The position numbers and the translations under genes are program-made. A DNA stretch of 50,927 nt. Source: Verrucomicrobiota bacterium. Its GTDB lineage: Bacteria; Verrucomicrobiota; Verrucomicrobiia; Opitutales; Coraliomargaritaceae. The stretch covers positions 1 to 50,927 of the forward strand of contig JBCBZJ010000022.1 in NCBI GenBank assembly GCA_039815375.1. Direction: 5' to 3'. Each line of letters starts with the position of its first letter. Within the stretch, counting starts at the first letter, position 1. Of this stretch, positions 20,647 to 37,114 are shown piece by piece. Under the pieces are notes generated by a model. The model had not been told where the DNA came from. It made no database searches and was given only the letters and a program-made list of their open reading frames with translations.

Positions 20647-21133
20647 TAATATAGAGGGGATAAGCAGTAATTCAGTTCTGCGGGGTCAGCCAAATACAAA
20701 ATCATATGAAAATGCACCTAATCAAGGTCGCTTAATCAATAACTTAATAGAACTTTAATTTTGATCGAGTTACCCAAATTGAGCCGAAGCTTTCATTAGT
20801 CTGGAGTGGTTAATGATGTGTTCGATGTTATATATCAAGTCAACGCTGGGGCGTAGCCGACCGGAGGCCCAGCATTGGGTTAGTTGGTTGTTCTTCGACT
20901 TCCTTTTGAGCGAACTCAAGAGACGTGATGTATACCAGCAACCTGTGCAGTTTGAGATTGTTATACTTCCAGCGCCAGACGTTGCTGTTGTTAACCATTA
21001 ATCAATGATTTTCGAAAAAGCATTCGTACCGACGGCTTCAAACTGTCAATAAAGCACTGGCGTTATGTTGGTGCTTTTTTGTATTCGATTGAGGTAAACC
21101 TTGAACATGCATCGCTGGTTTTGAAGACGCTGC

Positions 21134-21871
21134 CTAGTTTCTTCGACCGAGGATCAACCAATCCCATGTATCAAGGTCTTGCGAGTGCTCTGTGGGACGA
21201 TAGCGTAATGGCTGTATTTGCTGGATAGTAAATTGGTGCTCCTCAAGGAGCGCTTTGAGTTCGTGCTTGAGGTAGTGTTTAGTGCGAACGTGATCGATGA
21301 TATGAACGCCCTGATGTAGATCGATCACGGTGGACTGATCTGGTAGGGTTGCATCGAGCGAGTCTTGGCAAGACTTGCCCTCATATAGCTTTTGGCCGAG
21401 TTCGCTGTGCCGCTCCATGAGGATTGATTCAATCGCGGGCACGACAAGGATGAGGTGGCCGTCTTTCCGCACTTGATTGGCAACAGTGCGCCATGCGCGT
21501 AGCCGTTCATCAAGGGATGGCATCATCAACACGTTGATACAGATTACGAGGTCAACCGGGTTAAAGGGCACCGGGTCGCTGATGAGGTCGAGACAATGAT
21601 AGTGGATGTGATCTTTGCTGGCACAGCGCTCCTGCGTCAGGCGCAGGCCTTGCGGAGAGAAGTCACAACTCTCTACTCTTTCATAACAGTCCGAAAGCAA
21701 TTCCGTAAACTTGCCAATTCCACAGCCCAGATCAGCGGCGCTGTCGCAGGTCTGCGAACTGGCGAGTTGGTGGATGAGCTTGGAAACAACCTGATCGGCA
21801 TCCAAATCATAAACACTCACCACCTCAGCTGCATAGTTTTGCAGCGTTTTGTCCCAGTATGCACAATTCAT
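21134..21871 (-). CDS. Class I SAM-dependent methyltransferase
   Basis: ADLGCGIG motif I, then CDFS and DLVICINV. Confidence 0.85.
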   Translation of the reverse strand: MNCAYWDKTLQNYAAEVVSVYDLDADQVVSKLIHQLASSQTCDSAADLGCGIGKFTELLSDCYERVESCDFSPQGLRLTQERCASKDHIHYHCLDLISDPVPFNPVDLVICINVLMMPSLDERLRAWRTVANQVRKDGHLILVVPAIESILMERHSELGQKLYEGKSCQDSLDATLPDQSTVIDLHQGVHIIDHVRTKHYLKHELKALLEEHQFTIQQIQPLRYRPTEHSQDLDTWDWLILGRRN

Positions 21872-22099
21872 TCAATAACTTCTGCGCATGCAGATCAAAT
21901 AGTATGAGACTGAACTTACAGACTGTGTAAATAATACCTCTTAAACCAGCTGGCGCAAATCGAAAAAGAACAAGGGCACAAACGCTTAACCGAAAACACC
22001 CCCGATTTATAGCGACAGAACCTCAAAACTCCGATACCCAACCCATATCGTAGAGTTCGCAAACGGCGGCTCTTGCGGTGATACATACTAAATATAATT

Positions 22100-22306
22100 A
22101 TGAGCACAGGAACAGTTAAGTGGTTCGACGCCGAAAAAGGCTACGGATTCATCCAACCCGACGACGGAAGCAAAGATCTTTTTGTCCACCACTCGGAAAT
22201 TCAAAGCGACGGCGGTTACGCCAAACTTCAGGATGGCGAGAAAGTCCAATTCGAAGTTGGCAGTGGCCAAAAAGGCCCCTGTGCGACACAGGTTAAACCA
22301 ACATAA
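22100..22306 (+). CDS. csp: Cold-shock protein (CspA family)
   Basis: GTVKWF, KGYGFI (RNP1), LFVHHS (RNP2). Confidence 0.97.
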
Positions 22307-22329
22307 GCGGTCTCGATAGCCATTTTGGT

Positions 22330-22364
22330 AAAAGCTCCCTCGGAAATACCAAGGGAGCTTTTTT
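22330..22364 (+). terminator. Intrinsic terminator after csp
   Basis: aaaagctccct...agggagctttttt hairpin plus U-tract. Confidence 0.8.
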
Positions 22365-22522
22365 ACGACAAAGCGTCAAACTACAGAAGGAAGACAGTGG
22401 CTTTCGCCTTTGTCCTCGCAATTGAAAATTCAGCACCTATCGATAACTAATCGGAATTCTTCGGCGATGCACTCTGCAGATCCATTAGTCCGCATTTATA
22501 AATTGATCGCTCAAGTAATTCA

Positions 22523-23506
22523 ATGAGGACTGGGAAAGAACTGATTCTCGCGACCCGCGCGTATGCTCGGGAAGATCGCGTTAAGAGCTGGTGGGTGCTA
22601 CTTTCTACAGGTAGTGCCTATCTTGGTGCACTAATTGGCATTCTGCTGCTGCCATTTTGGATCCTAAAACTCGGGGTATCGATCATAGCAGGACTTCTGC
22701 TCGTCAGACTCTTTGTAATTTACCACGACCACCAGCATAATGCGATTCTCACCAAGTCGAAGCTGGCTGCATGGTTTATGCGCCTTTGGGGAATTTATGC
22801 GATGACGCCAAACAGCATTTGGAAGCATTCGCACAATCATCACCACAACCATAATTCCAAGATGCGTAGTGCACATATCGGCTCCTATCCGGTGATGACG
22901 CGTGAAAAATTTAACCAGTCATCCCGCAAAGAGCGCCTCAAATATTTGGCGATTCGCCATCCTCTGACTATTCTTTTAGGCTATTTAACCGTATTCGTGC
23001 TCGGGATGTGCATCATCCCCGGGCTCGAATGCCAAAAGAAACATCGTGATTCAATCATCGCATTGATACTTCATACTCTACTCTACGTCTTAACAATCAG
23101 CTTGCTTGGCTGGGAGGCGACAATGCTGCTTATCTTCGTGCCTTTCTTTGTCGCAGGTGCTCTTGGCGCTTACCTATTCTATGCGCAACACAACTTCCCG
23201 GATGTGGTATACATCGATAAAGATGGTTGGAGCTACGAAGGTGCAGCCCTATCTTCATCAAGCTTCTGTAAGATGCATTCAATTATGCACTACTTCACTG
23301 GTAATATAGGCTACCATCACGTGCATCACTTAAACGCTAAGATTCCTTTCTATCGTCTGCCGGAAGCTTTTCGTGAGATGCCTGAACTACAGGCCCCAAA
23401 GACCACTTCACTAAGCCCAAAAGCGATCTTTCTATGCCTACGCCTGAAAGTATGGGATGTCGAGCACCAGCGAATGATTAGCCTGCACGATGCAAAAGCA
23501 GTTTAG
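22523..23506 (+). CDS. Membrane fatty acid desaturase
   Basis: Three His boxes (HDHQH, HNHHH, HHVHH) and TM segments. Confidence 0.93.
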   Translation: MRTGKELILATRAYAREDRVKSWWVLLSTGSAYLGALIGILLLPFWILKLGVSIIAGLLLVRLFVIYHDHQHNAILTKSKLAAWFMRLWGIYAMTPNSIWKHSHNHHHNHNSKMRSAHIGSYPVMTREKFNQSSRKERLKYLAIRHPLTILLGYLTVFVLGMCIIPGLECQKKHRDSIIALILHTLLYVLTISLLGWEATMLLIFVPFFVAGALGAYLFYAQHNFPDVVYIDKDGWSYEGAALSSSSFCKMHSIMHYFTGNIGYHHVHHLNAKIPFYRLPEAFREMPELQAPKTTSLSPKAIFLCLRLKVWDVEHQRMISLHDAKAV

Positions 23507-23508
23507 TT

Positions 23509-23576
23509 TTTTTGGTCGGCCTACGGGGATCGCCTTACGAACCGGGTTCTAATTTTATAAAGAGAGCGAACATCCC
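23509..23576. repeat. Islet-end (att-like) motif, copy 1
   Basis: tttttggtcggcctacggggat...tacgaaccg..ttctaa.ttt...gaacatccc, shared with 27033-27099. Confidence 0.85.
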
Positions 23577-23639
23577 TGAAATAAAAAAAGAGGCTCCACA
23601 CATAATGCATGAAGCCTCCGAGTAAATTACTGTGTAAAC

Positions 23640-23676
23640 TTAAAGCTTGGCGCTGACAGTTGGGGCAGCCTTGAAG
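23640..23676 (-). pseudogene. 3' remnant of an HU-family gene truncated by IS3
   Basis: Encodes FKAAPTVSAKL*, identical to the C-terminus of 27891..28214. The downstream terminator region 23576-23639 is also homologous to 27829-27890. Confidence 0.88.
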
Positions 23677-23743
23677 CGACGTGCTCCCCTGAAATAGTCC
23701 CAGATTGAATGAGAGTTCTGATTGTTTAAAACCGAACAGAACC

Positions 23744-24013
23744 ATGGCAAAGAGAAAGCACCACACCGAAGAAGAGATCATCCGAATACTGAAGGAAGCT
23801 GAGAACGGCATGCCTGTGGCGGATTTACTTCGTCAATATAACATCTCGCAGGGAACCTACTACCGCTGGAAGGGCATTTACAGTGGTATGCAGGTCAACG
23901 AGCTCAAGCGGCTCAAAGAGCTGGAGAAAGAGAATGCACGGCTTAAGAAGCTCGTTGCCGAGCAGGCCTTGGACATCGACATCCTAAAGGACGTGAACTC
24001 AAAAAACTGGTGA
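23744..24013 (+). CDS. IS3 transposase OrfA (HTH)
   Basis: TEEEIIRILKEAE..TYYRWK..LKELEKENARLKKLVAE; AAAAAAC slippery site at 24001-24007. Confidence 0.93.
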   Translation: MAKRKHHTEEEIIRILKEAENGMPVADLLRQYNISQGTYYRWKGIYSGMQVNELKRLKELEKENARLKKLVAEQALDIDILKDVNSKNW

Positions 24014-24912
24014 AGCCTGCAGCAAAACGCAGTGCTGTTGATTACGTGCTGGAGTCGCGCTCGATCAGCTTCACTCGCTGCTGTGGACTGATGAACATCA
24101 GTCGAAGTTGCTATCGCTACCAATCGCGCCGTGCCGATGATCGTCCACTGCGCTCTGCGATCCGAGAGAAAGCGCAACAACGCAAACGCTGGGGCTATCG
24201 AAAGTTGCAAGTCCTCCTGCAAAGGGATGGCCACATGGATAATCACAAACGCATCTACCGCATCTACAAAGAAGAAGGCCTTCAGGTCAGGAAACGGCGT
24301 CGTAAGCGTGCTCGGACACAGCGCAGCTTTGAACTGTTGGCCAGCGAAGGACCAAACCAACGCTGGAGCATGGACTTCATGTACGACAGCACAACCGCTG
24401 GACGAAAGCTTCGCATCCTAAATGTCGTCGATGACTACACAAGAGAAGCGCTTTGGATGGAGGTCTCCACTTCAATCGGCGGCCAACATGTTACCCGCGT
24501 GTTGGATCGTCTTATCGAACTGCGGGGCAAACCTAAGAACCTGCTCACAGACAACGGCCCCGAGTTCGCAGGAACCGCACTGGATGCCTGGACTTACGAA
24601 AGGAAAATCAACCATCAGTTTATCCAGCCGGGTAAACCCAATCAGAACGCTTACGTTGAAAGCTTCAACGGCAAGGTCCGTGATGAGTGCCTGAATGAAC
24701 ACTGGTGGCAGAGCATCGACCATGCTCGAAACAAAATCGAAAGCTGGAGAGAGGACTACAATCAGGTCCGACCTCACAGCTCGCTAAACAACCAAACGCC
24801 TGCGGCCTTCGCGGAAAAATCGCGCGCTCCCCTAGGGGAGCAAGGAGGGATGAACAGGCTTACAACCATACAACCACAACTAGAACCTAAATCCTCAGCT
24901 CTCTCATTTTAA
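24010..24912 (+). CDS. IS3 transposase OrfB (DDE)
   Basis: WSMDF, TDNGPEF, QNAYVESFNGKVRDECLN, RPHSSL. Confidence 0.96.
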   Translation: MKPAAKRSAVDYVLESRSISFTRCCGLMNISRSCYRYQSRRADDRPLRSAIREKAQQRKRWGYRKLQVLLQRDGHMDNHKRIYRIYKEEGLQVRKRRRKRARTQRSFELLASEGPNQRWSMDFMYDSTTAGRKLRILNVVDDYTREALWMEVSTSIGGQHVTRVLDRLIELRGKPKNLLTDNGPEFAGTALDAWTYERKINHQFIQPGKPNQNAYVESFNGKVRDECLNEHWWQSIDHARNKIESWREDYNQVRPHSSLNNQTPAAFAEKSRAPLGEQGGMNRLTTIQPQLEPKSSALSF

Positions 24913-25061
24913 TCGGGACTTACTTGGGGGGCAGGTCGATTAGGAGCTTTGGAAACTACAGAGCAACCATCCTGTTTTAATACAGTAATTAGACCTCAAA
25001 TCATGATTCCCCACAGGTTTTTACGAAGAACCTTCTTTGATTATACGAGGACGTATTGCTA

Positions 25062-25634
25062 CTAAGGCCGGCGTCTCCTGTGGAGGAACGAACAGGCAGC
25101 AATAATTAAGGAGTAGGCAAGTGTACTGGGTTCAGGAATCGGAGTTAGATTGGTAAGAGTCAGTGTTTGGTTACTGGCTGAACCTAAATTAGTCATAGTG
25201 TAGGTATCTAAGTTTTGGAAGCCCATATCAGTGAGTGAGTAATTAGAAATTACTACAGTGTTTCCATTTCCAACAGGGTTATCAAAACGCATCTGAAATC
25301 CAAGCAGGCCGCCTAAAGAGCGAGGTGCAAGCTCTAATATTCCGCTAGTCAGTGAAAATGCATTACTTGAACCACTAGCAGAAAGCGGATCTTCTAAAAA
25401 GTTTGCACCAAGAGTTTCCTCACCAAGGAAATTACCAGTTATCAGTAGGAGCCTGGTCGCGGCCGTGCTGCGCACAAAAAGAACACTATCTGTAGGCCTA
25501 GAAGTATCACGCTTATCCACTCCGCTCATGGAGCCCGTTGTAGTTATGTGCAAGTCATTACCAACCTCTTCGAAAGCTATATTTAAAGCCGCACTCACTT
25601 GAAATCCAGCCATGAACATAAAGGATACTGACAA
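25062..25634 (-). CDS. PEP-CTERM exosortase-target protein
   Basis: C-terminal IPEPST, hydrophobic stretch, RRRR; start codon uncertain (TTG). Confidence 0.85.
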   Translation of the reverse strand: MSVSFMFMAGFQVSAALNIAFEEVGNDLHITTTGSMSGVDKRDTSRPTDSVLFVRSTAATRLLLITGNFLGEETLGANFLEDPLSASGSSNAFSLTSGILELAPRSLGGLLGFQMRFDNPVGNGNTVVISNYSLTDMGFQNLDTYTMTNLGSASNQTLTLTNLTPIPEPSTLAYSLIIAACSFLHRRRRP

Positions 25635-26035
25635 TGTCTTTACGATACGATTTAATCAGATGTTTATTTAAAGAAAAAACAGATTAATTTTTTTATATCT
25701 TATTTTACTTCATTAAAGTCTATATCGTCAAATTAGGCAATTTTCTCAACTAGCTTAGTCACAATCGCACCAGATCCCTACTAATGGCAGGAACCATTTT
25801 ACTAGTGAAGCTACTGACATTATTCACGGATCGTTTAAATCAGTAGTTACTGGATACCGACGACTACTTACCAGAGGCAGTTTGACCTGCGAATTCCGAG
25901 AAAAAACCTAATCTCCATCGAGATAACTACAAAACAACGACTTTTCGGATAATAAATTGGTCATTCTAATCCTCTCAAATGATTCTTAATCCACGACCGA
26001 TACTAAGATTTCTACCATTTTCGGACTCGGATGAG

Positions 26036-26100
26036 TTTTTAGACACTACGAGGATAGAAATACGAACCTACTCTAACTCCGAAACATCCCGGAAGGTATC
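26036..26100. repeat. Islet-end motif, degenerate copy
   Basis: ctacgaggatagaaatacgaacctactctaactccgaaacatcccggaaggtatc aligns to ctacggggatggcgatacgaaccgttttctaactttgaacatccccgcagctatc at 27045-27099. Confidence 0.7.
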
Positions 26101-26135
26101 AGTGGTGGTAGAAATGCGAAAATAGAAAGTGTAGC

Positions 26136-26411
26136 TCAGGCAATTCTGATTTCAACATGCTTACCAAGAGCTTTGGCATATTTCTCGACTGTCGAAAGCT
26201 TCACATCTTGAACATGATTTTCCAAACGCGAGATCGCCGTCTTTCTCGTGCCAATAGCACTCGCAATCTCGTCTTGGGTTAACCCTGCCTCCAGACGGGC
26301 CTGTTTGAGCAAGATGCCGATTCGAAAATTCTCATAACCTTCGTCAAAGCCCTCAGCAAATTCAGGGCTCGATGCTTTTCTCTTAGCAATATATTTTTTT
26401 AGATCACTCAT
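26136..26411 (-). CDS. higA: Xre/HTH antitoxin (HigA-like)
   Basis: LKQARLEAGLTQDEIA..AISRLEN HTH; ATGA overlap with the upstream toxin. Confidence 0.88.
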   Translation of the reverse strand: MSDLKKYIAKRKASSPEFAEGFDEGYENFRIGILLKQARLEAGLTQDEIASAIGTRKTAISRLENHVQDVKLSTVEKYAKALGKHVEIRIA

Positions 26412-26758
26412 TTTGTTTCCTCCTTTAGAAAGATTCTCTTACGTTGTTCGGCCAAATCGATTTCCTGCTTTGGCGTCTTCTGCGTTTTCTTAGCAAAGCC
26501 ATTCGTGAGCACGACAAGTTTGCCTTCATATTCAAATCCCAGAATACGGAATATGTTGCCGCCAAACTGAATTCTGGCCTCCCAGATATCGTCCGTGCTC
26601 GTCAACTTTTTCCAATACTGCGCTGGAACGAAGTCCAAGTCCTCAATCAGCGTAAGCACCCAGGCCACTTTCTGCGCCTGCTTGTCCGTCAGACTATCTA
26701 TGAACTCCTCAACAGGACTAGTGCCGTCTGCTCGTTTGAAGAAAAGAACTTCTTTCAT
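26408..26758 (-). CDS. higB: RelE/ParE-superfamily (Gp49/HigB-like) toxin
   Basis: SPVEEFIDSL, IWEAR, FRILGF, LTNGFAKKTQKTP..EIDLA. Confidence 0.9.
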   Translation of the reverse strand: MKEVLFFKRADGTSPVEEFIDSLTDKQAQKVAWVLTLIEDLDFVPAQYWKKLTSTDDIWEARIQFGGNIFRILGFEYEGKLVVLTNGFAKKTQKTPKQEIDLAEQRKRIFLKEETK

Positions 26759-26766
26759 TGTGAATT

Positions 26767-26795
26767 AAAGTTAACATACATGTTAACTTTGTCAA
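26767..26795 (-). promoter_or_regulatory. higBA promoter/operator
   Basis: Perfect inverted repeat aaagttaacat-ac-atgttaacttt (26767-26790) abutting a minus-strand TTGACA (26795-26790). Confidence 0.75.
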
Positions 26796-26880
26796 ACCAA
26801 CAAAATCCTGAAAATATATCAGAATTGAAACCATCTGCTAAAATCTTCCGCTATCCAAGGGAGACTGTCTCTAATTTTGG

Positions 26881-27036
26881 TGGTCGGGGCGGAGGGATTG
26901 CGTTGCCATCTACGGTCGCTAGCTCCCTTCGTCGAACCCGGGGTGCGGCCTTCGCCGCATCGCTGCTGCGCAGCTCATTTCAAATCCCCCACCCTTAACG
27001 ACACAAAAAAACCTTCGCTCTCGCGAAGGCTGTTTT
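26881..27036 (-). repeat. tRNA-linked repeat unit, copy 2 (terminator hairpin, structured core, 19-bp tRNA-Pro 3' end)
   Basis: Near-identical to 33705-33861 (3 substitutions and one A-run length difference). Confidence 0.95.
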
Positions 27037-27099
27037 TGGTCGGCCTACGGGGATGGCGATACGAACCGTTTTCTAACTTTGAACATCCCCGCAGCTATC
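27033..27099. repeat. Islet-end (att-like) motif, copy 2
   Basis: tggtcggcctacggggat (18 bp) identical to 23513-23530, with further downstream similarity. Confidence 0.85.
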
Positions 27100-27582
27100 G
27101 GTCGGGATGGCCAAACAAAATTAGAATTTACATCTCTTCGAGACAACTTGTCCCAAAAGTAACGTTAGTTCGATAAAATCATCTACGTGAATCGCATTTC
27201 CTAGGCAACTCGTGGCACCTCCTTTTCGTTTTCTCGGTGATAGTAATTTAACAGCCCTCCGAGCCGTTCAAATTTCACGACTGAACCACTCTGCCCTTTG
27301 TTTATCGGGGCATACGGGAATGGGATCAGATTATCCAAGCCCTGATGATTTCTTTCGTGGTGATAGTGCAAAACGTAATTTGAGATAACGATACGGCTGG
27401 CAATGTCGCTGCCGGCAAAACCAGTAAACTGCTCAAATCAATTTCTATCGATTCATCCCGCATGCCACTCCCCCAGGGCCAAGACGTGAATCAGTATTTT
27501 CTGAATCGACCTTAATAGCCGAGGGCAGCGGTGTCCGCCATCACCTATCTCCAAGAAATCAAACTCCACAGAAAGGTTAGTC

Positions 27583-27837
27583 ATGAAACTGAAAAACAGA
27601 ACCACTAGAGGTCTCGTTATTCTTATCGGAGCTTTCATACTCCTGGTCAGCCATGACGGCTACACAGGAGAAGGCGGATTGCTGAGTCCTCAAATTCAGG
27701 AGCAATTGCTCAACCTGCCTGAGACAAGCAAGGGCCGAGAGGAACTCGGGCTTACAAAGCTGATTCCGCTTACGCGGATTCATAGCTGGTCAAAGCAGGA
27801 GACCGCATTCACAGAACTTCTCCGTGACCTGAAATAA
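27583..27837 (+). CDS. Small hypothetical protein with N-terminal hydrophobic segment
   Basis: ATG preceded by gaaagg; basic N-terminus followed by LVILIGAFILLV. Confidence 0.4.
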   Translation: MKLKNRTTRGLVILIGAFILLVSHDGYTGEGGLLSPQIQEQLLNLPETSKGREELGLTKLIPLTRIHSWSKQETAFTELLRDLK

Positions 27838-27869
27838 AAAGAGGCTCCACGCATGACACGTGAAGCCTC
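27836..27869 (-). terminator. Terminator downstream of HU gene
   Basis: gaggctccacg...cgtgaagcctc hairpin with an A-run on its left (U-tract on minus strand); conserved at 23583-23618. Confidence 0.7.
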
Positions 27870-27890
27870 TGAGTAAATTGCTTTGTGAGC

Positions 27891-28214
27891 TTAGAGCTTG
27901 GCACTCACTGTCGGCGCAGCCTTGAAGGAAATCTTCTTCTTGGCCTTCACGTTGACTGTCGATCCGTCGAGTGGATTACGTCCCTTACGTGGCGCGGAGC
28001 AACCAACGTAGAAGTTTCCAACACCGGGTAATGGAGCAACCACAGAAGGTTTGACCGCAGCTTCACCCTTCTTCGGCTTCTTGATTGCTTTTGCAGCTTT
28101 CTTGAGGGCAGTCAGATAGACGGCACCCACCCCATCAAGGATACGAGTTGCTTCTGCTTTGCTTTCAAGACCTAGCTCCTTCTGGAGCGCTTCAACGAGT
28201 TCGATTTTTGTCAT
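27891..28214 (-). CDS. HU/IHF-family DNA-binding protein with Lys-rich insertion
   Basis: MTKIELVEAL..SKAEA, LPGVGNF, RKGRNP.DG, FKAA. Confidence 0.9.
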   Translation of the reverse strand: MTKIELVEALQKELGLESKAEATRILDGVGAVYLTALKKAAKAIKKPKKGEAAVKPSVVAPLPGVGNFYVGCSAPRKGRNPLDGSTVNVKAKKKISFKAAPTVSAKL

Positions 28215-28321
28215 AATTTATCTTTTTGGTTTACGACATTCTAATGATGCCAAGAGAGGGTTAGATAAACTCGCCCCCTTCGAATTACCAAGGTTTTTCG
28301 AAGGAAGCCTCTGTGGGGCGT

Positions 28322-29137
28322 CTAACGACTATCTCCATTAACGCATTTCCCCACTTCGGAAGCACCCGTGTCTTCCAAATTTACCTGTCCTTGCGTTGCC
28401 GTTTTTTCAATAACTCGAATTAATTTGGGCACCATCTCTTCCATCAACTCATCCAATTCTTTTCTAATCGAACTCGGAAGCTTAGGTTCCTGCCGGCGAA
28501 GAATCTTCCAGACTCTAAAGCGGGTATAAACACCGCACTTGACAGCCAGCGATCGTATGGCGTCGTCTAAATCTTCGAGCGGTTTCTGCAGCTGATCAAC
28601 CTCAACCTCCTCCTGGACCTTATCTAAGAAGAATTGCGCTAAGTCGTCTTCCGAAACAAGTTTTTGAGCGCGTTCATTGTATTCGCTTAATACAGTCAAT
28701 AGCGTATCAATATCCTCAGATCCATTGATACGAAACGCAACAACCGGATCTCTTTCGGAAAGATCATCCAAGGCACTCCGAAAACCAGCAATAAAACCTT
28801 CGGGAAGTGTGGCTTTCCTTGCCAGCATGTCCCCGATCATCTGATCGATTAACGCCTCAACTCCACTCACGACTTCCAAATCGTTCGAATCTAGCCTCAC
28901 ACCATATTTCTGCCAAACAGAAAGGTAAGATTGTAGACCCTCTTTACCAAAGCCTTTAAATTTAACATTCTTTAATCTTATGCAATGCCGAAACTCCAAC
29001 AGATAATACAGCACGCGATTAGCCATCCTCCTTTGCTCCACACGTGTCCTATATACATATGCTCCAGTTGCTGCGGTGACCGAAAGCAGCACACCTAAAT
29101 CACGGACCCACCGTAATATATCTGCCTCAAAGCTCAT
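28322..29137 (-). CDS. Hypothetical protein, N-terminal TM plus helical domain (last gene of putative defence operon)
   Basis: 271-aa ORF starting 23 bp after the E2-E1-JAB stop; hydrophobic LGVLLSVTAATGAYVY. Confidence 0.75.
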   Translation of the reverse strand: MSFEADILRWVRDLGVLLSVTAATGAYVYRTRVEQRRMANRVLYYLLEFRHCIRLKNVKFKGFGKEGLQSYLSVWQKYGVRLDSNDLEVVSGVEALIDQMIGDMLARKATLPEGFIAGFRSALDDLSERDPVVAFRINGSEDIDTLLTVLSEYNERAQKLVSEDDLAQFFLDKVQEEVEVDQLQKPLEDLDDAIRSLAVKCGVYTRFRVWKILRRQEPKLPSSIRKELDELMEEMVPKLIRVIEKTATQGQVNLEDTGASEVGKCVNGDSR

Positions 29138-29160
29138 AATTAAAAATTGTAGTTGCAGCC

Positions 29161-31272
29161 TTAGACAAGAAACATCCCATCAGGAGTCCAAACTAGACAT
29201 ACAGTAGGTTCGTAGTCTCTCATCGATTTGAGACGCTTTAGCGTGCTCTTGTCAGTCCCTGACGCAGAGCCACCTTGTGGATGGCTGTGCCAAGTCCCCA
29301 AATAGGTCACCTTCCCATAGGACGCAGTTTCGGTTTTTGTAACTAGCTCCTCCAAGCCTTCAGTTCCAAGAACAAACAAGCTTGGACTGCTTTTGCTATC
29401 GGGGGGCGGAGGTAAAACTTCACTGATCACAATAGTTCGAGAGTTATAGAAGACACTGCCCAACAAAACACCTCCTGTCTCACAAACCCCGGAATCCCGA
29501 CTCGCCTGTTCGATCCAATCAGCAACTGAGCTAGAAACGCGGACACCCCAAGCATAATTACCTAATTCATTATTTACCGATACACTGGATGGAACGGAGT
29601 AGCTTCGCACGTCTAAGCATCCATCCTCTTTCAGGCGGGTAATACATAAATCACCGGAATCGCATCCTCGATTTTCAATAAACTTCTGTATCCTCATACT
29701 AAAGCTTGATGCATGTATAGACACATGAGCATCACTCATTATAAGCGTGTTCGATGAGCATGACTGTCCAATCTGAACAACATCTCTTCCATCGTTGGAC
29801 ATAATTTCAGAAACCCAATCATCTCTAAGCGACAGCAAATAAAAGTATGCCCAAAGATCCGCTAGCAGGACTCCACGATCAATACTCTCTGACATCATGA
29901 CACCAAACACTCCGTGCATATACAAAAACGCAGAAACGATAGGTGGGAGATCACACCTTGAAATTAACCTTGAACGAACAACGAATGACGCGGTCGTATC
30001 GATAAGAAGTTTAGTTCGTGAAAATCCAACCTCGAGCCGATCCGTATAATACCCCTTAGACTTCTCACTATCATTTTCCTTATACTCAGTCCCAGTTATA
30101 ATATTTAATGACCGTTCAAGCAAAACGGCTTTTTTCATAAAGGAAGTAGCTGTTAGAGCATGTCGTGCATTGTTATGAGGCCTAAAAAATGAACTGTCCA
30201 CGCAGTCAAATGGACCATTACCATTCCTTGCGAGATGCACACCGATTTTTGAACCTAAACTCCCACAACCAATCAGTGCGATTTTTCTATTATCAAACAA
30301 TTGATTTGCCCCTGACATACGCCTGAGTAGAGCCGGTGAAGGCCGACTAATATGCTCCATCATGCTCACTTCCGACTGATGAGAAAGCCTTCGCGCTTTC
30401 CCTCTAATATGATATTTTTTTGTTATACAGAAGTGAAGCAATTCAACATCAGACTTCGTGTTGATCACTGGACATGGTCGAGTCACAACCAAAATAACAA
30501 ATATGTATTTTTGCTCAAGAAACCCGCGTGCAAAGCGCTCGATTCGCCCCTCTAACTTATTAATTCCCACAAGTGAAGCGTAGGCATATAAGTCAGATAA
30601 ATCAGAGATTACATTAGGAACATAGTTATCGTCGACCCCTCGACAAGGATCAGTAATCAAAACTACTTTAGAAGCATGCCCATGCTGGGCGACTCCTCTA
30701 GTATCTTTAGCATACAATAAATTTGAGTATTCACTATAATCGAAATCATATTCAATAAACTCTCGACCAGAGAGTTCTTGTAGAAGCAGATCTCGATCAT
30801 ACTCAATATAACCGAGTGACCTATCAACGCGCATGGGCTCCCACCCCTGATCAGAGTCCATCAAGGAGTTAGCAGCAGCAGATTGTAGCCATTCCATTAA
30901 CTGATTCAGAATAGCGTTCATCCACTCTGACTGCTGGAGAAGTTCCGATACAGAGCCGTCATATATGCATGGGTAAACGCACTTTTCATTCGGGTTGATA
31001 TGTGGGAAACAACGTGGAAAATCATCCCGCAACCGTATCCTAGGAGCTACAAAAGGAAAATCAGGAGTAAACTCAAATACTACGCGCTCAGATTCACACA
31101 CACCCTGTTCTGTCACTCCTGATTCAATAAACTTGTTGGGAAGTGGAACAATAGCATCAGCAGAAATCTCAATGCATCCGCTTTGATCCGGAGTAAGGCC
31201 CAGCGACACAGCCTTAAAGCCACTGTGCGAGCTTATGTAGGAATGCGCTTTCTGTACCCAAAAATCATCCAT
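29161..31272 (-). CDS. Prokaryotic E2 - E1(ThiF) - JAB fusion (Cap2/Cap3-like ubiquitin-like conjugation enzyme)
   Basis: E2: FPFVAPRIRLRDDFPRCFPHINP..PCIY. E1: IGCGSLGS, NNARH, DTTAS, GQSCSS. JAB: ETGG, YLGTWHSHP..SGTD. Start placed at ATG 31272, overlapping the upstream stop. Confidence 0.9.
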   Translation of the reverse strand: MDDFWVQKAHSYISSHSGFKAVSLGLTPDQSGCIEISADAIVPLPNKFIESGVTEQGVCESERVVFEFTPDFPFVAPRIRLRDDFPRCFPHINPNEKCVYPCIYDGSVSELLQQSEWMNAILNQLMEWLQSAAANSLMDSDQGWEPMRVDRSLGYIEYDRDLLLQELSGREFIEYDFDYSEYSNLLYAKDTRGVAQHGHASKVVLITDPCRGVDDNYVPNVISDLSDLYAYASLVGINKLEGRIERFARGFLEQKYIFVILVVTRPCPVINTKSDVELLHFCITKKYHIRGKARRLSHQSEVSMMEHISRPSPALLRRMSGANQLFDNRKIALIGCGSLGSKIGVHLARNGNGPFDCVDSSFFRPHNNARHALTATSFMKKAVLLERSLNIITGTEYKENDSEKSKGYYTDRLEVGFSRTKLLIDTTASFVVRSRLISRCDLPPIVSAFLYMHGVFGVMMSESIDRGVLLADLWAYFYLLSLRDDWVSEIMSNDGRDVVQIGQSCSSNTLIMSDAHVSIHASSFSMRIQKFIENRGCDSGDLCITRLKEDGCLDVRSYSVPSSVSVNNELGNYAWGVRVSSSVADWIEQASRDSGVCETGGVLLGSVFYNSRTIVISEVLPPPPDSKSSPSLFVLGTEGLEELVTKTETASYGKVTYLGTWHSHPQGGSASGTDKSTLKRLKSMRDYEPTVCLVWTPDGMFLV

Positions 31273-32437
31273 GTGGAAGTGGCTCACGAGTTGATGCAAG
31301 CGCAGCAGAAGACAATTTTGACTTATCCTTCTTCGCCTTTCTTTGAGGGCCACTAGCGGTTAAGTTAAATTCCAACGGTTCAGGTTTTTTCTCTGAAGGA
31401 GTCTCGTTTGTGCAGAAGAATAGTTTCTTTGAAACAATAGTAAGGTATTCTTGTTTAGCAGCATAACTGGGCGGATCGTTATCGTCATCCTTAATGACAC
31501 AGCTTTGTGAGACGATGCAGCCCGACTCCTTCTTGCATTGACTCAAAGCCAACTTAGCATCACCGCAAACCTTAGGGTCGTCACACTCCGATCGGCTATC
31601 GTATGACAGAGAATGCCACGAGCAATGGTGCGGACACAAAAGTATGTCATAAGACAGCTTGTCCAAATCGCTTCTATACTTAGACCAAAGGCTTTCCCAC
31701 ACAAAGCACTCAGCGTCAGCCGCCAACAATAATCTATTATATGCAGCACCTTCAATAACCTTAATTTGAAGGATTACACTCTGCCTGTTCTTTTTCTCAT
31801 AATCTTCGTCACTCTCATCTTCCTGCTGCTCAATAGGCCCAAGAATAAAGGCTTCAAACTTCGGTGTCAGTTCCTTGCAATTTATTGTCGAGAACCTCGT
31901 CCCAACTTTACGCGTTATCGAAATTAGCTCTATGTCCTCTTCGTCGGAGTCATTCGCAACAACAGTAGCACGGTCTCCTTCATCTTGTATGCATCCTTTA
32001 GAGCGGAATGCTTCGACACGCCTTTTCATTTCACGATTGAAGGCTTTAGCATCCTCACACAACTCATAACTTGTAGATGCACGCTTCTTATACCTAGTGC
32101 TGCTCCATAGTTCACGTATAACAATTTTAGGCGCTTCACCATCCTCAGCCTCAGGATACTCACTCAGAGGACCAAGGTGAAAGTGCTTCTGAATGCCTGC
32201 CAAATGATCCTGATGTCGATGAGTTAATAGGAATGCATCTACATATGGCCTCCCCTCATTATCTTCTTTTAATCTATCGCGCAATTCAGTTGCGACATCA
32301 CAATGGTCAGCAATCTTTTCATCCTCAATAGAGACATCAACCATCAAGGTGGTCTCTTCGGAATCATTCAGCTTAAGAAGGGTAATACCTCCATTCTTTT
32401 CTCCAACCGGAAAAAACGTAATCGTAGACTGTTTCAT
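31265..32437 (-). CDS. Metallo-beta-lactamase-fold (ComEC-like) hydrolase ending in Gly
   Basis: THRHQDH (HxHxDH), ADAE, PHHCS; basic flexible tail ending ..REPLPHG. Confidence 0.88.
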   Translation of the reverse strand: MKQSTITFFPVGEKNGGITLLKLNDSEETTLMVDVSIEDEKIADHCDVATELRDRLKEDNEGRPYVDAFLLTHRHQDHLAGIQKHFHLGPLSEYPEAEDGEAPKIVIRELWSSTRYKKRASTSYELCEDAKAFNREMKRRVEAFRSKGCIQDEGDRATVVANDSDEEDIELISITRKVGTRFSTINCKELTPKFEAFILGPIEQQEDESDEDYEKKNRQSVILQIKVIEGAAYNRLLLAADAECFVWESLWSKYRSDLDKLSYDILLCPHHCSWHSLSYDSRSECDDPKVCGDAKLALSQCKKESGCIVSQSCVIKDDDNDPPSYAAKQEYLTIVSKKLFFCTNETPSEKKPEPLEFNLTASGPQRKAKKDKSKLSSAALASTREPLPHG

Positions 32438-33148
32438 TTATTTCTTTCCTCCATATTCTGTGAACAAGTAGTGAGCGTAATCAAGAGATGCAGATCTAAT
32501 AATCGGTATCCCTAAAACTGTCAGAGGTATTGCCACCAAGAGGTATACCCCTGAAATAATACGCCCCAATTCACTCTCAACACACAGGAGTGACGATGCG
32601 CCCAGAATAAGTCCCAGAGGAAGCCCCCCGACCAAATTCCTCCAGAAACCATACCGTATATTATACTGAAGCGTAAACTTACCATCGCCGACATGATGCC
32701 TTATCGCCGAAACTGCATCTCTAGCTCGTAAGCGGGCTTCAAGTTCATCATCTCGTTCCGCTTCTGCGTCATAGAGTTCAATTTCAAAATCCTCAAGGAT
32801 CTTTCGATGGAGCATTTCCTTCTGAGGTTTAGAAATAAGCCTAGTTTTCCATAACAGCATCTCTGTCGTTGGAAACCTCAGACCATTCTTAAAAATCAAC
32901 TTCTCGACCAAGCTCTTCCCCATCTCGCGAACGAGGGATGTGAACGAAATGATCAGAACTGCACTCAAGCTCAACTTACCAACCAGCATGAACTGTTCTG
33001 CGTATTTGAATAAATCCTTGTAGCTCTCAACTGGAGCTATGCTAGTTAACATAATGGCAGGAAACACCACTATAATTGATGGCAGATATCGAGCTCGGAG
33101 AGAATATTTATCAAACGACAACGGCAACTTCATAAGTTTTAAGCTCAT
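32438..33148 (-). CDS. Multi-pass (about 4 TM) membrane protein, first gene of putative defence operon
   Basis: Two hydrophobic pairs flanking a soluble loop; FDKYSLRARYLP and NIRYGFWRNL motifs; stop abuts the MBL start (TAAATG); start likely 33148 or 33133 rather than 33382. Confidence 0.75.
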   Translation of the reverse strand: MSLKLMKLPLSFDKYSLRARYLPSIIVVFPAIMLTSIAPVESYKDLFKYAEQFMLVGKLSLSAVLIISFTSLVREMGKSLVEKLIFKNGLRFPTTEMLLWKTRLISKPQKEMLHRKILEDFEIELYDAEAERDDELEARLRARDAVSAIRHHVGDGKFTLQYNIRYGFWRNLVGGLPLGLILGASSLLCVESELGRIISGVYLLVAIPLTVLGIPIIRSASLDYAHYLFTEYGGKK

Positions 33149-33661
33149 TCCGCATTTTTCATTCCAACCACAGAAAATACTATATACAGTCGAAAAATCC
33201 CTACAAGCAACTATATATAGATATATTTGTAACGCACACATGGGACATGTGACACACCCACAGCTAAGATTAACGACATAATGACACGCACACGTCTCAT
33301 ATCTATATATCGTTATATTTTGATAAGTAAACACGTCGTTCCTGCCACCCGAGCACGACGCACAGAACATTCCCCGCGACATCTGCGCTATTACGGTTCT
33401 CCCCAGAACAGTTGCGCAGATCCTACCATTAGGGATGTAGGAACACAGGTTCGCCCTGCCATCACCACAGCCTACTTGCCAAATATCATTAGGGATTAGG
33501 GCCTGAGAAAACAGAGAATTTTGGAGAACATTCGGCGAGAAAATTGAGGAGCGTCAGATTAAGAGAGAACTTTGTCCCTAATAAGGAAGAACCACACTCA
33601 ATTGCAAAATTCGCAAACTCCTTGCCGCAAAGGACTTTAGCATCACTCAAAACCCAAACAC

Positions 33662-33695
33662 AAAAAAGCTGCGAACCTCTGGAAAGTTCGCAGCT
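33662..33695 (-). terminator. Terminator at the tRNA-proximal end of islet A
   Basis: agctgcgaac-9nt-gttcgcagct perfect stem with an A6 run to the left. Confidence 0.7.
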
Positions 33696-33704
33696 AATTC
33701 TCGA

Positions 33705-33861
33705 TGGTCGGGGCGGAGGGATTGCGTTGCCCTCTACGGTCGCTAGCTCCCTTCGTCGAACCCGGGGTGCGGCCTGCGCCGCATCGCTGCTGCGCAGCTC
33801 ATTTCAAATCCCCCACCCTTAACGACACAAAAAAAACCTTCGCTCTCGCGAAGGCTATTTT
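33705..33861 (-). repeat. tRNA-linked repeat unit, copy 1
   Basis: Directly follows the tRNA CCA; contains the ccttcgc-tctc-gcgaagg terminator; ends in the 19-bp duplicate tggtcggggcggagggatt. Confidence 0.95.
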
Positions 33862-33939
33862 TGGTCGGGGCGGAGGGATTCGAACCCCCGACCCTCTGCT
33901 CCCAAAGCAGATGCGCTAGCCAGGCTGCGCTACGCCCCG
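33862..33939 (-). tRNA. tRNA-Pro(TGG)
   Basis: CGGGGCG/CGCCCCG acceptor stem, TCTGC-TT-TGG-GA-GCAGA anticodon arm, GGTTCGAATCC, encoded CCA. Confidence 0.98.
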
Positions 33940-34384
33940 TATCCAAAGAAGCGCGAAGTGCATCAGAATACGTCGGCCTGTCAACTCGCATTTTTGCAGA
34001 GTTTGTTTGTGATTCTTTACCTGACAAGAGGAGCCTGATAGAGCCCTGAAGGCATTAACAAATAGTCCGTCTACACAGATTCACTATTAGTTGAGTCACT
34101 ACCTTAAGCAAAACCGACAGATAAGAGGCCCCACATTCAACTACCGGGCAGTTCCATCGCAGCGCATCTACAACACGAGCGGAATAAGAGTCGAATGATT
34201 GCAACCGGCTGGCCAGAGGCCAAACTCATGAATCTTTTGAGGATATAAAAAAATCGCGCAATCCGGCCACTAGTCAAAAGCAATGCATTTCGTTACTTTT
34301 TTGTGTAAGTCAAGGAACATAATGCCGAACTATAGATCCGACACTCAGCAAATAGTATAAAACTCATAAACCAAATATAAAGCT

Positions 34385-34930
34385 ATGAACAAAACCATCC
34401 TCGCCCTCATCGTTGCATCTATTAGCATCCCTGTCTCAGCTGCCCTCGCCGGTAGTTGTGCAAGCTGCGGTAGCTGCTCCTCCAAAGCTAAAGCGGAAAT
34501 GACTAAAGTGGCCGCACCAGCCAATATTGTCGAAACTGCAGTATCTGCAGGCAAATTCAACACACTCGTTGCTGCGGTTCAGGCTGCAGGCCTTGAAGAC
34601 ACACTAAGCGGTGAAGGTCCATTCACTGTCTTTGCACCGACCGACGAAGCATTTGCTGCCCTCCCTGAAGGCACAGTAGAAAGTCTTCTTCTTCCGGAAA
34701 ACAAGGACAAGCTTATCGCAATTCTCACCTACCACGTCGTGCCGGCAAAGGTAGAGGCTGCTGATGTAGCCGCCGGAGAAGCACCGACTGTTAATGGCCA
34801 AACTGCTACCATCGAAATCGCTAACGGTAACGTTATGATCGAAGGTGCTAAAGTCGTAATGACTGATGTTGGTGCAAGCAATGGCGTTATCCACGTGATC
34901 GATAGTGTTATCCTTCCGAAAGACGCTTAA
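34385..34930 (+). CDS. Secreted fasciclin (FAS1) domain protein
   Basis: Signal peptide, [30 protein letters not shown]. Confidence 0.96.
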
Positions 34931-34959
34931 GCGACCGACTCATCTTATTTTTTAAATCG

Positions 34960-34990
34960 AAGGCGTTCCCGGTTGGGAACGCCTTTTTTT
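34960..34990 (+). terminator. Intrinsic terminator
   Basis: aaggcgttccc-ggtt-gggaacgcctt plus T-run. Confidence 0.88.
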
Positions 34991-35149
34991 GTTTTTTAGG
35001 GATCAAAATGAGCTTCAAAAAGCTCTGATCGACATACGCTTTTTCCGGATTAAACCAGAGTGACCTCAAAGAGGGTTAATCTACTACCCTGATGAATGAG
35101 CGATCGGCTCGATCGAAAAGAGCGGGACTAATATTCTATGGGTCTACAA

Positions 35150-37114
35150 TCAACCTTCAGCTCGTTGGCGAGCGTCGGTATCGATTTCTTTTAGAATGGT
35201 CTGCATCACTTCGGCAGCCGCTTGCTTTACCTTGGGCAGCTCTTCCGGATCGTTCACCTCAGAGCGACCAAAGACATAGAACTTGATCTTCGGCTCGGTG
35301 CCGGATCCGCGAACCGCGAAGCTATAACCGTTGCTCAGTTCGAGGAAATAGAAATCCTGCGGCGGTATCCTCTTGCCGTCGGAATCGATGATTTCATCCC
35401 GACCGAAGTCGGTGAATCCAGTGACTTCAACCGAACCGAAGGCCTTCGGAGGATCGTTGCGGTAGGTGTCGAGGATGTTCTTGATTTTCTCGGCACCAGC
35501 CGCGCCTTCATAATAAATATTAATGGTCTTTTCCTCGTAGTAGCCGTGCTGCAAATAAAGTGCGTCCAGATATTCGGGGAAGGTCATTTCGTTTGCCTTC
35601 AAATAGGCTGCAAGCTCACAGAACATGACCACTGCTGCGTTGGCATCCTTATCCCGAACCTTGTCCGTGCCAAGGTAACCGTAGCTCTCTTCGCTTCCGA
35701 AGACAAAGAAAGTCGAGTAGTCCAGCAGGAGATCTGCTCGCGTCCAAATGTCGCAGCTATCGTAGTCGACCGCGAGACCTTCCTTCTCAAAGAGCTTCTC
35801 TTTCATTTCGGCCTCATAACCGGCGAGTTTCTCTCCGAGCCATTTGAATCCAGTGAGCGTATTAATCGTCTTGAGTCCGTGCCAGTCTGCAACGGACTCC
35901 TGCATCGGTGTCGTCACGAAGGTCTTAATGACAACGGCACTTTCGGTGCCATCTTCGGGGAGAATCTCGGCGTCCTTAAGTGTCGAAATCCGGTATTCAG
36001 CCAGAATTACGCCGACTTGATTACCCGTCAACAAGACCATCTCACCATCGGTGTTGCGCACGGCCACGCCCATGCGATCGGCATCCGGATCGGTCGCGAT
36101 CACCACATCGGCCCCACACTCTTCCGCCTTGGCAAGAGCCATGGTGAGGGCTTCGGCATTTTCCGGATTCGGCGACTTCACCGTAGGGAATCGTGGATCC
36201 TGAATACTTTGCTCAGGCACTTCAATCACTTCGACACCCAGCTTTTCGAGGGCTGGCACTGTACTGATTGCACCCGTTCCGTGAATCGGAGAGAAAACAA
36301 TCTTCGGTGCTTCCTTTTGCATCACTTCGCGGTCGATCACCATTTCGTCGAGCATGGCAAAGTATGGCGCGTCGGCGTCTTTCTTCAACGTAATCACCGG
36401 CGCAAGATCTATATCGAGGAACTCAGGCAGCTCTTCGAGTTTCACCTTGCCAACCAGACCAACAATGCCTTCGGCATGCGGCGAAACAACCTGTGCCCCG
36501 TCTTCAAAGTAAGCCTTGAAGCCATTGTCATGCGGCGGATTATGACTGGCAGTAATCACGGCTCCACAGGTTGCTTTGAACTGACGCACCGCAAAGCTGA
36601 GTTGAGGAGTTGAACGCGGCCCATCGAAAATCAGGGCCTGTCCACCAAGCTTGCACCAGGTGGAAGCAGCCAACTCACAGAAATGACGGGAAAAGTGGCG
36701 CACATCGTGGGCGATGATGAAGCGCGGCAGGTCATGGCGACCCGAGTCTGCAAGGTATGCCTCGCAATACCGAAACAGGCCGATGGTGGCTTTGATGATA
36801 TTGAAATCATTCAAAACATTGGTGCCGACAGCAGCATGCTCGGGAGTGCCTTGAGGCCCCTCGATGCCGATTTCCGAAGAAGCCGAAACGCGCCCGATGG
36901 TGCGGCCACGGATACCGCCTGTGCCGAAGGCCATATTCTGATAGAAGCGATCATTAAGTTCGCTCCACTCTTCTTTTTCAACCAGCTCATCAATACTCGC
37001 ACCCACCCACTCCGGCAGGATATCGGCACTGGCCCAAACTTTCAGATTCCCGACGGTACTTTCGAGGAGCTTACCCTCTGCACCGGCTGCTTCGATTTTT
37101 TCAATGACGCTCAT
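35150..37114 (-). CDS. Phosphoglucomutase/phosphomannomutase
   Basis: FGTGGIRG, TASHNP catalytic Ser, DPDADR, EESYG, RGSGTEPKIK; start likely ATG 37114. Confidence 0.95.
   Translation of the reverse strand: MSVIEKIEAAGAEGKLLESTVGNLKVWASADILPEWVGASIDELVEKEEWSELNDRFYQNMAFGTGGIRGRTIGRVSASSEIGIEGPQGTPEHAAVGTNVLNDFNIIKATIGLFRYCEAYLADSGRHDLPRFIIAHDVRHFSRHFCELAASTWCKLGGQALIFDGPRSTPQLSFAVRQFKATCGAVITASHNPPHDNGFKAYFEDGAQVVSPHAEGIVGLVGKVKLEELPEFLDIDLAPVITLKKDADAPYFAMLDEMVIDREVMQKEAPKIVFSPIHGTGAISTVPALEKLGVEVIEVPEQSIQDPRFPTVKSPNPENAEALTMALAKAEECGADVVIATDPDADRMGVAVRNTDGEMVLLTGNQVGVILAEYRISTLKDAEILPEDGTESAVVIKTFVTTPMQESVADWHGLKTINTLTGFKWLGEKLAGYEAEMKEKLFEKEGLAVDYDSCDIWTRADLLLDYSTFFVFGSEESYGYLGTDKVRDKDANAAVVMFCELAAYLKANEMTFPEYLDALYLQHGYYEEKTINIYYEGAAGAEKIKNILDTYRNDPPKAFGSVEVTGFTDFGRDEIIDSDGKRIPPQDFYFLELSNGYSFAVRGSGTEPKIKFYVFGRSEVNDPEELPKVKQAAAEVMQTILKEIDTDARQRAEG

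Follow-up and report, generated by a model that had tools for sequence, protein, structure and literature searches.

How is a stack of genomic islets that encode no integrase built up behind a single tRNA gene, and which enzyme builds it? This question is raised by a 50,927-bp stretch of the genome of a Verrucomicrobiota bacterium of the Coraliomargaritaceae (contig JBCBZJ010000022.1 of assembly GCA_039815375.1; the whole stretch is called the window below), in which a tRNA-Pro(TGG) gene on the minus strand is followed outward by repeat 1, islet A, repeat 2 and islet B (Table 1). The heptamer CCGACCA (TGGTCGG on the forward strand) is present in five copies, at 33862, 33705, 27037, 26881 and 23513, and closes the tRNA-Pro gene, both repeats and both islets; in-silico deletion of islet A at this 7-bp core leaves a clean tandem of the two repeats. 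Islets that lack an integrase are stacked here, and their joints fall at the last seven bases of tRNA-Pro, both in the gene and in repeat copies. All of the basic layout given in the initial annotation, which was made from the window alone, was confirmed, namely the tRNA gene, the two repeats with their 19-bp copies of the tRNA 3' end at 33705 and 26881, the hybrid sites and the restored tandem. Its statement that the window holds no integrase stands for tyrosine recombinases, since a search of the contig for PF00589 gave no match, but a DDE transposase remnant and a whole IS3 element had been missed; no relic of a tyrosine or serine integrase was found in islets A and B. The flanks of the array have a G+C content of 0.505 and 0.518, higher than that of either islet. 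Contigs of sequencing run X1, the probable source run, tile the stretch with zero differences and a flat depth of 10-14, leaving a single 44-bp gap (26938-26982) within repeat 2, while runs X2-X8 cover only small shares of it and come from other strains or organisms. An assembly artefact is ruled out by the four differences between the repeats, the flat depth and the same build in independent loci. No joint of an empty or circular allele was present in the contigs of run X1, which drop rare forms, and in an RNA-family search of positions 20000-36000 the tRNA was the only match, the repeat and the far-end motif of the islets matching no known RNA family.

The repeats of the array are ordinary tRNA-linked repeats (TLRs). 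In both of them 19 of 19 bp equal the tRNA 3' end, repeat 1 abuts the tRNA-Pro gene, the two are 97.6% identical across 164 bp, and tandem alleles occur in genomes G004, G005, G006 and G018. Among 81 tRNA-Pro loci (relatives and the window), a copy of the 3' end lies within 320 bp at 20, and in 11 of those 20 it is followed by the same leader again (both counted by eye), so the empty tandem-repeat alleles that the initial annotation expected in relatives do exist. The genome from which the window comes (its own genome, G000) carries tRNA-linked repeats at seven further tRNA or tmRNA genes. The TLRs of Escherichia coli (Rudd 1999, as described in an excerpt of PMC8144298) likewise lie downstream of tRNA genes, in tandem, with their last 18-19 bp equal to the tRNA 3' end; unlike them, the repeats in the window are interrupted by islets at their last 7 bases, and the same excerpt gives TLRs no role as insertion sites.

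Between two copies of the core, islet A has two recognisable ends. The near one, the A arm, is about 240 bp long and was found after the tRNA-Pro gene in nine loci (G015, G016, G046, G048, G073, G084, G119, G123 and G124) and after a repeat copy in four (the window, G075, G076 and G111), counts that include the eight sequences from which the profile was built and which match by construction. Because of this distribution, gene and repeats are both targets, and the earlier proposal that the repeat copies and not the tRNA gene serve as attB sites is not supported. In G016, for example, the A arm, a 12-kb sugar cluster, the far end, the core and the displaced terminator all sit at the tRNA-Pro gene itself, while G111 has a nearly identical A arm at a repeat copy with different cargo. 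A hexamer, ctaatt, had been suggested as a shared near-end signal; it is not kept in any of the seven aligned homologous near ends of islet A, and the near end of islet B matched none of the other loci compared. The far end, here called T1, is shared by the two islets as had been noticed (88% identity over 48 bp, 23509-23556 against 27033-27080), and its conserved length is about 95 bp and not about 40 bp. Its inverted boxes are mostly CTAAT and ATTAG/AATAG, with conservation extending about 35 bp beyond them by inspection. Among family genomes, 18 of 101 carry the T1 DNA pattern, as do 13 of 401 order genomes (reversed control, 0), and it is also present in 21 metagenome contigs. Independent arrays with the same build (L181, G073:C61 and G111:C7, the first two multi-unit) support the earlier idea of a family of non-autonomous elements with a 7-bp core and variable defence or accessory cargo. 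The predicted junction T1-core-A arm was also found, in L175, L171 and a contig of run X5; it may be a tandem joint, which contigs do not distinguish from a circle. A sister end, T2, finishes in the last bases of tRNA-Asn and belongs to the same kind of arrays there. This T2 system (G078:C71 = L350, G047:C9 = L351, G103:C84 = L352) has the same transposase clade as described below; its units stand in tandem, its terminators are displaced, and it makes use of a tRNA copy carried by a repeat. More T1/T2 copies and transposase remnants lie elsewhere in the own genome (G000:C4:14865-14952, C31:532-566, C30:12276, C21:35010 and C10:17370), two of the remnants 3 and 9 kb behind tmRNA and tRNA-Ser.

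T1 leads to a candidate enzyme. In relatives it lies 78-145 bp behind a gene for a 366-aa rve_3 transposase, of which islet A keeps a 3' remnant. At sites found by DNA pattern alone and having at least 450 bp upstream, a transposase 3' end lies within 450 bp upstream of T1 in 8 of 16 metagenome and 5 of 20 family-genome cases, the two sets overlapping in part, and T2 adjoins the transposase gene at 15 of 26 sites. Moreover, T1 or T2 is present in 20 of 24 transposase-positive family genomes versus 14 of 77 others. Since the shared end so often stands directly behind its gene in relatives, the transposase is the likely candidate for the inserter. Residues D179, D245 and E280 are invariant in 52 of 52 proteins (DD35E), and the best folds matching its predicted model (pLDDT 79) are IstA and retroviral integrases; it stays below the family cut-offs of IS3 (106.9 vs 160) and IS481 (91.2 vs 224), and a PDB sequence search gave 0 matches. 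Its named relatives are Opitutales, one of them a genome from the order to which the window belongs. In a tree of 30 of the 60 intact genes, an Opitutales clade of 12 (support 100/100) keeps the left end of the insertion sequence (IS); the right end is T1 or T2 in 11 of 12 cases (one of the T2 assignments comes from a partial match) and the canonical repeat in 0 of 12, whereas the outgroup rows have the canonical repeat in 13 of 18 and T1/T2 in 0 of 18. The paired terminal inverted repeats of the wider transposase family are replaced by T1/T2 in this clade. That wider family (L066-L131, many phyla, no family model over cut-off) has inverted repeats of about 18 bp starting with CGT and not TGT; by eye there is no consistent target duplication, left flanks end in CC, CG or GG, and right flanks start with GG or CG. 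Four of its loci are within 700 bp behind a tRNA or tmRNA gene. Between the IS left end, the transposase gene and T1/T2 there is neither room nor an open reading frame (ORF) for partner genes (TnsC, TniQ/TnsD). The order in G073:C61 and G078:C71 is tRNA, short near end, transposase gene, T1 or T2, second unit and displaced native terminator.

What lies immediately beyond T1 falls into two classes. After two of 32 distinct right flanks with altered ends were dropped, 16 of the remaining 30 were a tRNA-Pro-type A-rich leader starting exactly at CCA (12 terminators, 2 A arms and 2 bare A-tracts), 10 started with GG or CG and 4 otherwise; the flanks of three newer T1 sites all start with GG or CG, which brings the non-tRNA T1 flanks of this class to 13 of 17. 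Canonical IS ends have such a flank in 22 of 34 cases, against a background of 0.13. For T2 (n=28), 12 flanks were an Asn-type T-rich leader exactly at CCA, 8 started with GG/CG and 8 were other, that is, 8 of 16 GG/CG away from tRNA. This split suggests a transposase cut after the terminal CA of T1 and T2, with the same end reaching tRNA sites by a second route of joining that is directed by the core. Because T1 away from tRNA is joined to the GG/CG flanks that its transposase family prefers, T1 probably represents the right end of a transposon, an end that mimics that of a tRNA. Furthermore, CCGACCA travels with T1 to sites behind tRNA-His and tRNA-Asn, so the core is more than a target duplication. 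For the inner box of the IS left end, the best match is in T1 and T2, at the same offset from CCA, and both the window (26046) and a run X8 contig have an IS end joined into T1 at the same fixed position.

Taking together the observed architecture, the empty alleles, the use of both gene and repeats, the near arm and T1 around changing cargo and the place of T1 behind the transposase gene, and with all of the chemistry inferred, we tentatively propose, at somewhat less than an even chance, that the array grows by tandem accretion, and that a DDE transposase acting on a tRNA-mimicking right end drives it. T1 would be the right end of an IS clade that swapped out its usual inverted repeat, and the enzyme would cut after the terminal CA. 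At ordinary targets the cut end would be joined to GG/CG flanks; at tRNA-Pro, the cut strand would be attached immediately behind the tRNA CCA, and host branch migration and resolution over the 7-bp identity would complete the exchange. One-end transfer with branch migration is proposed on the precedent of the targeted insertion of IS911 (IS3 family) and IS26; in these and in IS30, according to the excerpts of PMC7986276 and PMC2909936, one end is joined to an end-like target before the host steps of branch migration and resolution. Like these, the system proposed here would employ a single DD35E protein, one-end transfer and host resolution; unlike them, where the targets are IS ends, its target would be a tRNA 3' end mimicked by the right end of the element. 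In the reverse step a circle T1-core-near arm would be released with any cargo between, so that islets could move in trans after the transposase gene has decayed. The array could grow because each insertion leaves a core on both sides and each tRNA-linked repeat adds one more. A bolder version, which we regard as possible but rather doubtful, is that an Opitutales clade of single-gene DDE ISs has exchanged its right inverted repeat for ends copying the last 6-7 bases of a tRNA (Pro/Asn), and, needing neither TnsC and TniQ nor a tyrosine integrase, homes on tRNA 3' ends, delivering cargo of up to 25 kb and building expandable defence arrays, with a core that sets the target and might be reprogrammable.

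Several points weigh against the transposase as the driver. Conserved arms around a core of 7 bp are what textbooks give as the mark of a tyrosine integrase. T1 has no adjacent transposase gene at over half of its sites, no intact copy of the transposase was found in the own genome, and the T1-bearing transposase genes in a clear tRNA-Pro context (G073, G119, L162, L175 and the window) are all broken. The A arm has no TG start and its first bases vary, so it is not an IS left end, and at no locus was an IS left end seen directly on the tRNA CCA, about 100 bp or more always lying between. The gene and T1 also stand behind tRNA-His and tRNA-Asn; T1 is therefore not Pro-specific. The type of end is not strictly congruent with the tree, T1 and T2 being mixed in one subclade. 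The box similarity is modest (10 of 39 T1 and 2 of 32 T2 sites above the 99th shuffle percentile), the a-type box scores T1 and T2 alike, and since related T1/T2 sites are not independent, p-values overstate.

In the main rival reading, the A arm and T1 would be the attL/attR arms of a tyrosine integrase acting in trans on cis-mobilizable islets, the IS being a passenger that uses T1 as hot spot and surrogate right end and so carries it elsewhere. The displaced native terminator and the arm-core-arm junctions would fit this, IS ends do insert into T1, the own genome has 11 tyrosine recombinase matches above the Pfam cut-off, and L175 encodes a tyrosine recombinase of 505 aa at a distance of 1.1 kb inward from its A arm. 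The L175 protein was rejected as a dedicated enzyme, as a search with it found no relative at E<1e-15 in 101 family genomes; nor was any tyrosine recombinase matched within up to 15 kb downstream in 81 tRNA-Pro loci, where a home-made 11-sequence profile was used and many contigs are short. Around other A and T1 ends, 53 of 106 ORFs were scanned against Pfam; none matched a tyrosine recombinase, while L242 gave a partial serine recombinase and a Y1 transposase, and L170 an IS481-type protein. Moreover, the two tyrosine-integrase islands examined, at tRNA-Pro (G101) and tRNA-Asn (own genome), have att copies of about 43 and 28 bp and no T1/T2, and two unrelated arms, T1 and T2, would each have to be adopted by the same IS clade. 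The own-genome island at tRNA-Asn was also rejected as the source of T2, having a long att copy and no T2 arm. Because a short core between arms is what tyrosine integrases leave, an integrase in trans keeps a real, if minority, probability.

It is improbable that there is no dedicated homing at all, the region behind tRNAs being a safe hot spot for ISs where ordinary transposition, together with microhomology or RecA exchange between CCGACCA ends and repeats, builds the stack. The transposase gene does occur 90-300 bp behind His, Gly, Asn and Pro tRNAs, the highly identical repeats could recombine, and left boundaries vary, islet B being without a known near arm. Against such a process is the joining exactly at CCA of 16 of 30 distinct intact T1 ends to a Pro-type leader and 12 of 28 T2 ends to an Asn-type leader, and RecA exchange needs more than the seven shared bases. 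The integron-like platform put forward in the initial annotation, with only repeat-borne copies as targets, resembles the array in look through its cassette-like cargo and the use of repeat copies in the window, G111, G075, G076 and L181, but is very improbable, being already contradicted by the A arm at the tRNA-Pro gene itself in nine loci and lacking an integron integrase and attI beside the array and a fixed attC core. T1 was rejected as an attC site by inspection, its inverted boxes lacking the invariant AAC/GTT pair of the attC consensus.

Among known systems, the array works like the accretion of cis-mobilizable elements (CIMEs) and is neither an integron nor a Tn7-like element. Tn7-like elements homing to tRNA genes also deliver cargo by DDE chemistry and require TnsC and TniQ/TnsD; here, unlike in them, the transposase gene stands alone between its ends. 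CIMEs and tandem accretion of the ICESt1 type at tRNA 3' ends are described in the excerpt of PMC5704250 as stacked integrase-less units that keep both ends, newcomers entering the site that includes the gene end. The islets of the window are likewise integrase-less and stacked at a tRNA end, and islet A keeps its left and right ends, having its near arm, T1 and a core on both sides with no intact recombinase. They differ from the CIMEs described there in that the core is only 7 bp, tRNA-linked repeats act as extra sites, no relic of a tyrosine integrase or of conjugation is present, and the far end is linked to the gene of a DDE transposase. Among ISs that target particular sites, the nearest group found is the ISAba32 subgroup of IS1202 (bioRxiv 10.1101/2022.12.17.520857), which inserts 5-6 bp beside XerCD xrs sites with a direct repeat and has two inverted repeats, tRNA being unmentioned in the excerpt. 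The T1/T2 clade shares with it an IS481/IS3-related transposase and, as proposed here, oriented insertion at a conserved chromosomal feature; it is without two inverted repeats, and its proposed targets are tRNA ends. In the literature search, which did not extend to ISfinder, we came across no account of a lone DDE transposase whose ends mimic a tRNA, and the IS family may already be catalogued. Stacks of islets without an integrase are common at tRNA genes, usually with no known enzyme. For the present one a candidate enzyme, two end sequences and the target are defined, which makes the question testable. Should the transposase be the enzyme, a single DDE protein would suffice to reach tRNA safe sites; should it be a tyrosine integrase, the locus would be a well-mapped case of known accretion that delivers a 6A-MBL system.

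Table 1. Features of the tRNA-Pro array, listed outward from the tRNA gene
Feature	Position	Strand	Remarks
tRNA-Pro(TGG)	33862-33939	minus	last 7 bases CCGACCA, the shared core
tRNA-linked repeat 1	33705-33861	minus	native terminator, palindromic REP-like body, 19-bp tRNA 3'-end copy at 33705-33723
Islet A	27044-33704		G+C 0.446
A arm (near arm of islet A)	33465-33702	minus	own terminator hairpin and conserved palindromic boxes; homologs follow tRNA-Pro ends in relatives
ORF up to 314 aa	32438-33382	minus	hydrophobic, no family match
6A-MBL MBL-fold protein, 390 aa	31265-32437	minus	NF058524, 342 bits (cut-off 220)
6A-MBL E2-E1-JAB fusion, ORF up to 730 aa	29161-31353	minus	NF058523, 507.9 bits (cut-off 320); Pfam Prok-E2_A and Prok-JAB
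271-aa ORF	28322-29137	minus	no family match
HU/IHF-like gene	27891-28214	minus	Pfam Bac_DNA_binding
84-aa ORF	27583-27837	plus	no family match; accompanies the HU gene in run X3 and run X5 contigs
DDE rve_3 transposase 3' remnant	27201-27398	minus	residues 302-366 (last 65 codons), 80% identity, E 1e-30; 74 bp from T1
T1 far end of islet A	27037-27127	minus	ends in CCGACCA
tRNA-linked repeat 2	26881-27036	minus	displaced terminator, body, 19-bp tRNA 3'-end copy at 26881-26899
Islet B	23520-26880		G+C 0.456
RelE/HigB-like toxin gene, unit B1	26408-26758	minus	Pfam Gp49
HTH antitoxin gene, unit B1	26136-26411	minus	Pfam HTH_3
Third T1 end, truncated	26046-26126	minus	a canonical inverted repeat from the IS family of the linked transposase (about 26029-26050) stands in place of the core
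PEP-CTERM-like exported protein gene, 190 aa, unit B2	25062-25634	minus	weak NF038129 match below cut-off; C-terminal PEP motif
IS3-family insertion sequence	23682-24933	plus	orfA 23705-24013, orfB 24010-24912; NF033516, 258 bits (cut-off 160)
HU 3' remnant and terminator, 102 bp	23575-23676	minus	82% identity to the HU gene; cut beside the IS3 end
T1 far end of islet B	23513-23597	minus	5' part lost; ends in CCGACCA, then bare A-tract and convergent desaturase gene

Islet A carries a predicted 6A-MBL anti-phage system, its adjacent MBL-fold and E2-E1-JAB genes both scoring over the NCBIfam cut-offs. In the excerpt of the review PMC13276650, 6A-MBL is an anti-phage system with ubiquitin-related parts; islet A has its MBL-fold protein and E2-E1-JAB fusion, and differs from the systems described there in the new host, the mobile context and the two flanking genes without a family. 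These two ORFs, which have no Pfam, NCBIfam or PADLOC match, may be extra components. The cargo of such islets is cassette-like, including 6A-MBL, HipAB, Fic, ParDE and PIN. The HU gene or remnant noted earlier near each far end is indeed there, whole in islet A and as a remnant with its terminator in islet B. The HU gene of islet A is cargo: 0 of 13 homologs in relatives have T1 or the transposase within 1.5 kb, and a role as a constant accessory gene of the element was rejected on that ground.

Islet B, described at first as one islet, consists of two units, given the third, truncated T1 within it. No near arm is recognised at its near end. In a run X6 contig the truncated-T1 remnant of islet B is joined to the core and terminator, and the toxin-antitoxin unit therefore has a complete end in another strain. 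The junction at the far end of islet B recurs in L172, and the IS3 element is a later passenger.

Some further observations concern repeats and tRNA genes. At eight tRNA or tmRNA genes of the own genome (window 33705-33825; G000 C10, C11, C21, C31, C36, C51 and C62) the tRNA-linked repeats have a palindromic piece, resembling repetitive extragenic palindromic (REP) sequences, set into the T-loop copy; the same piece is found inside T1 in G016 and G122, and a Y1 transposase of the REP-associated type, which may move such pieces, adjoins the A arm in G076. An 8-kb island at tRNA-Pro(GGG) of the own genome (G000:C11:248511-256759, L050) has one repeat, a 28-bp att copy and no integrase among its ORFs, and a cluster of 11 atypical tRNA genes at G000:C40:54655-56468 is probably on a mobile element. 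At the other side of the window, positions 1-20646 hold a very long repetitive minus-strand gene that runs off the contig end and sits behind a cluster of outer-membrane efflux, HlyD, M50 peptidase and SecA-like genes.

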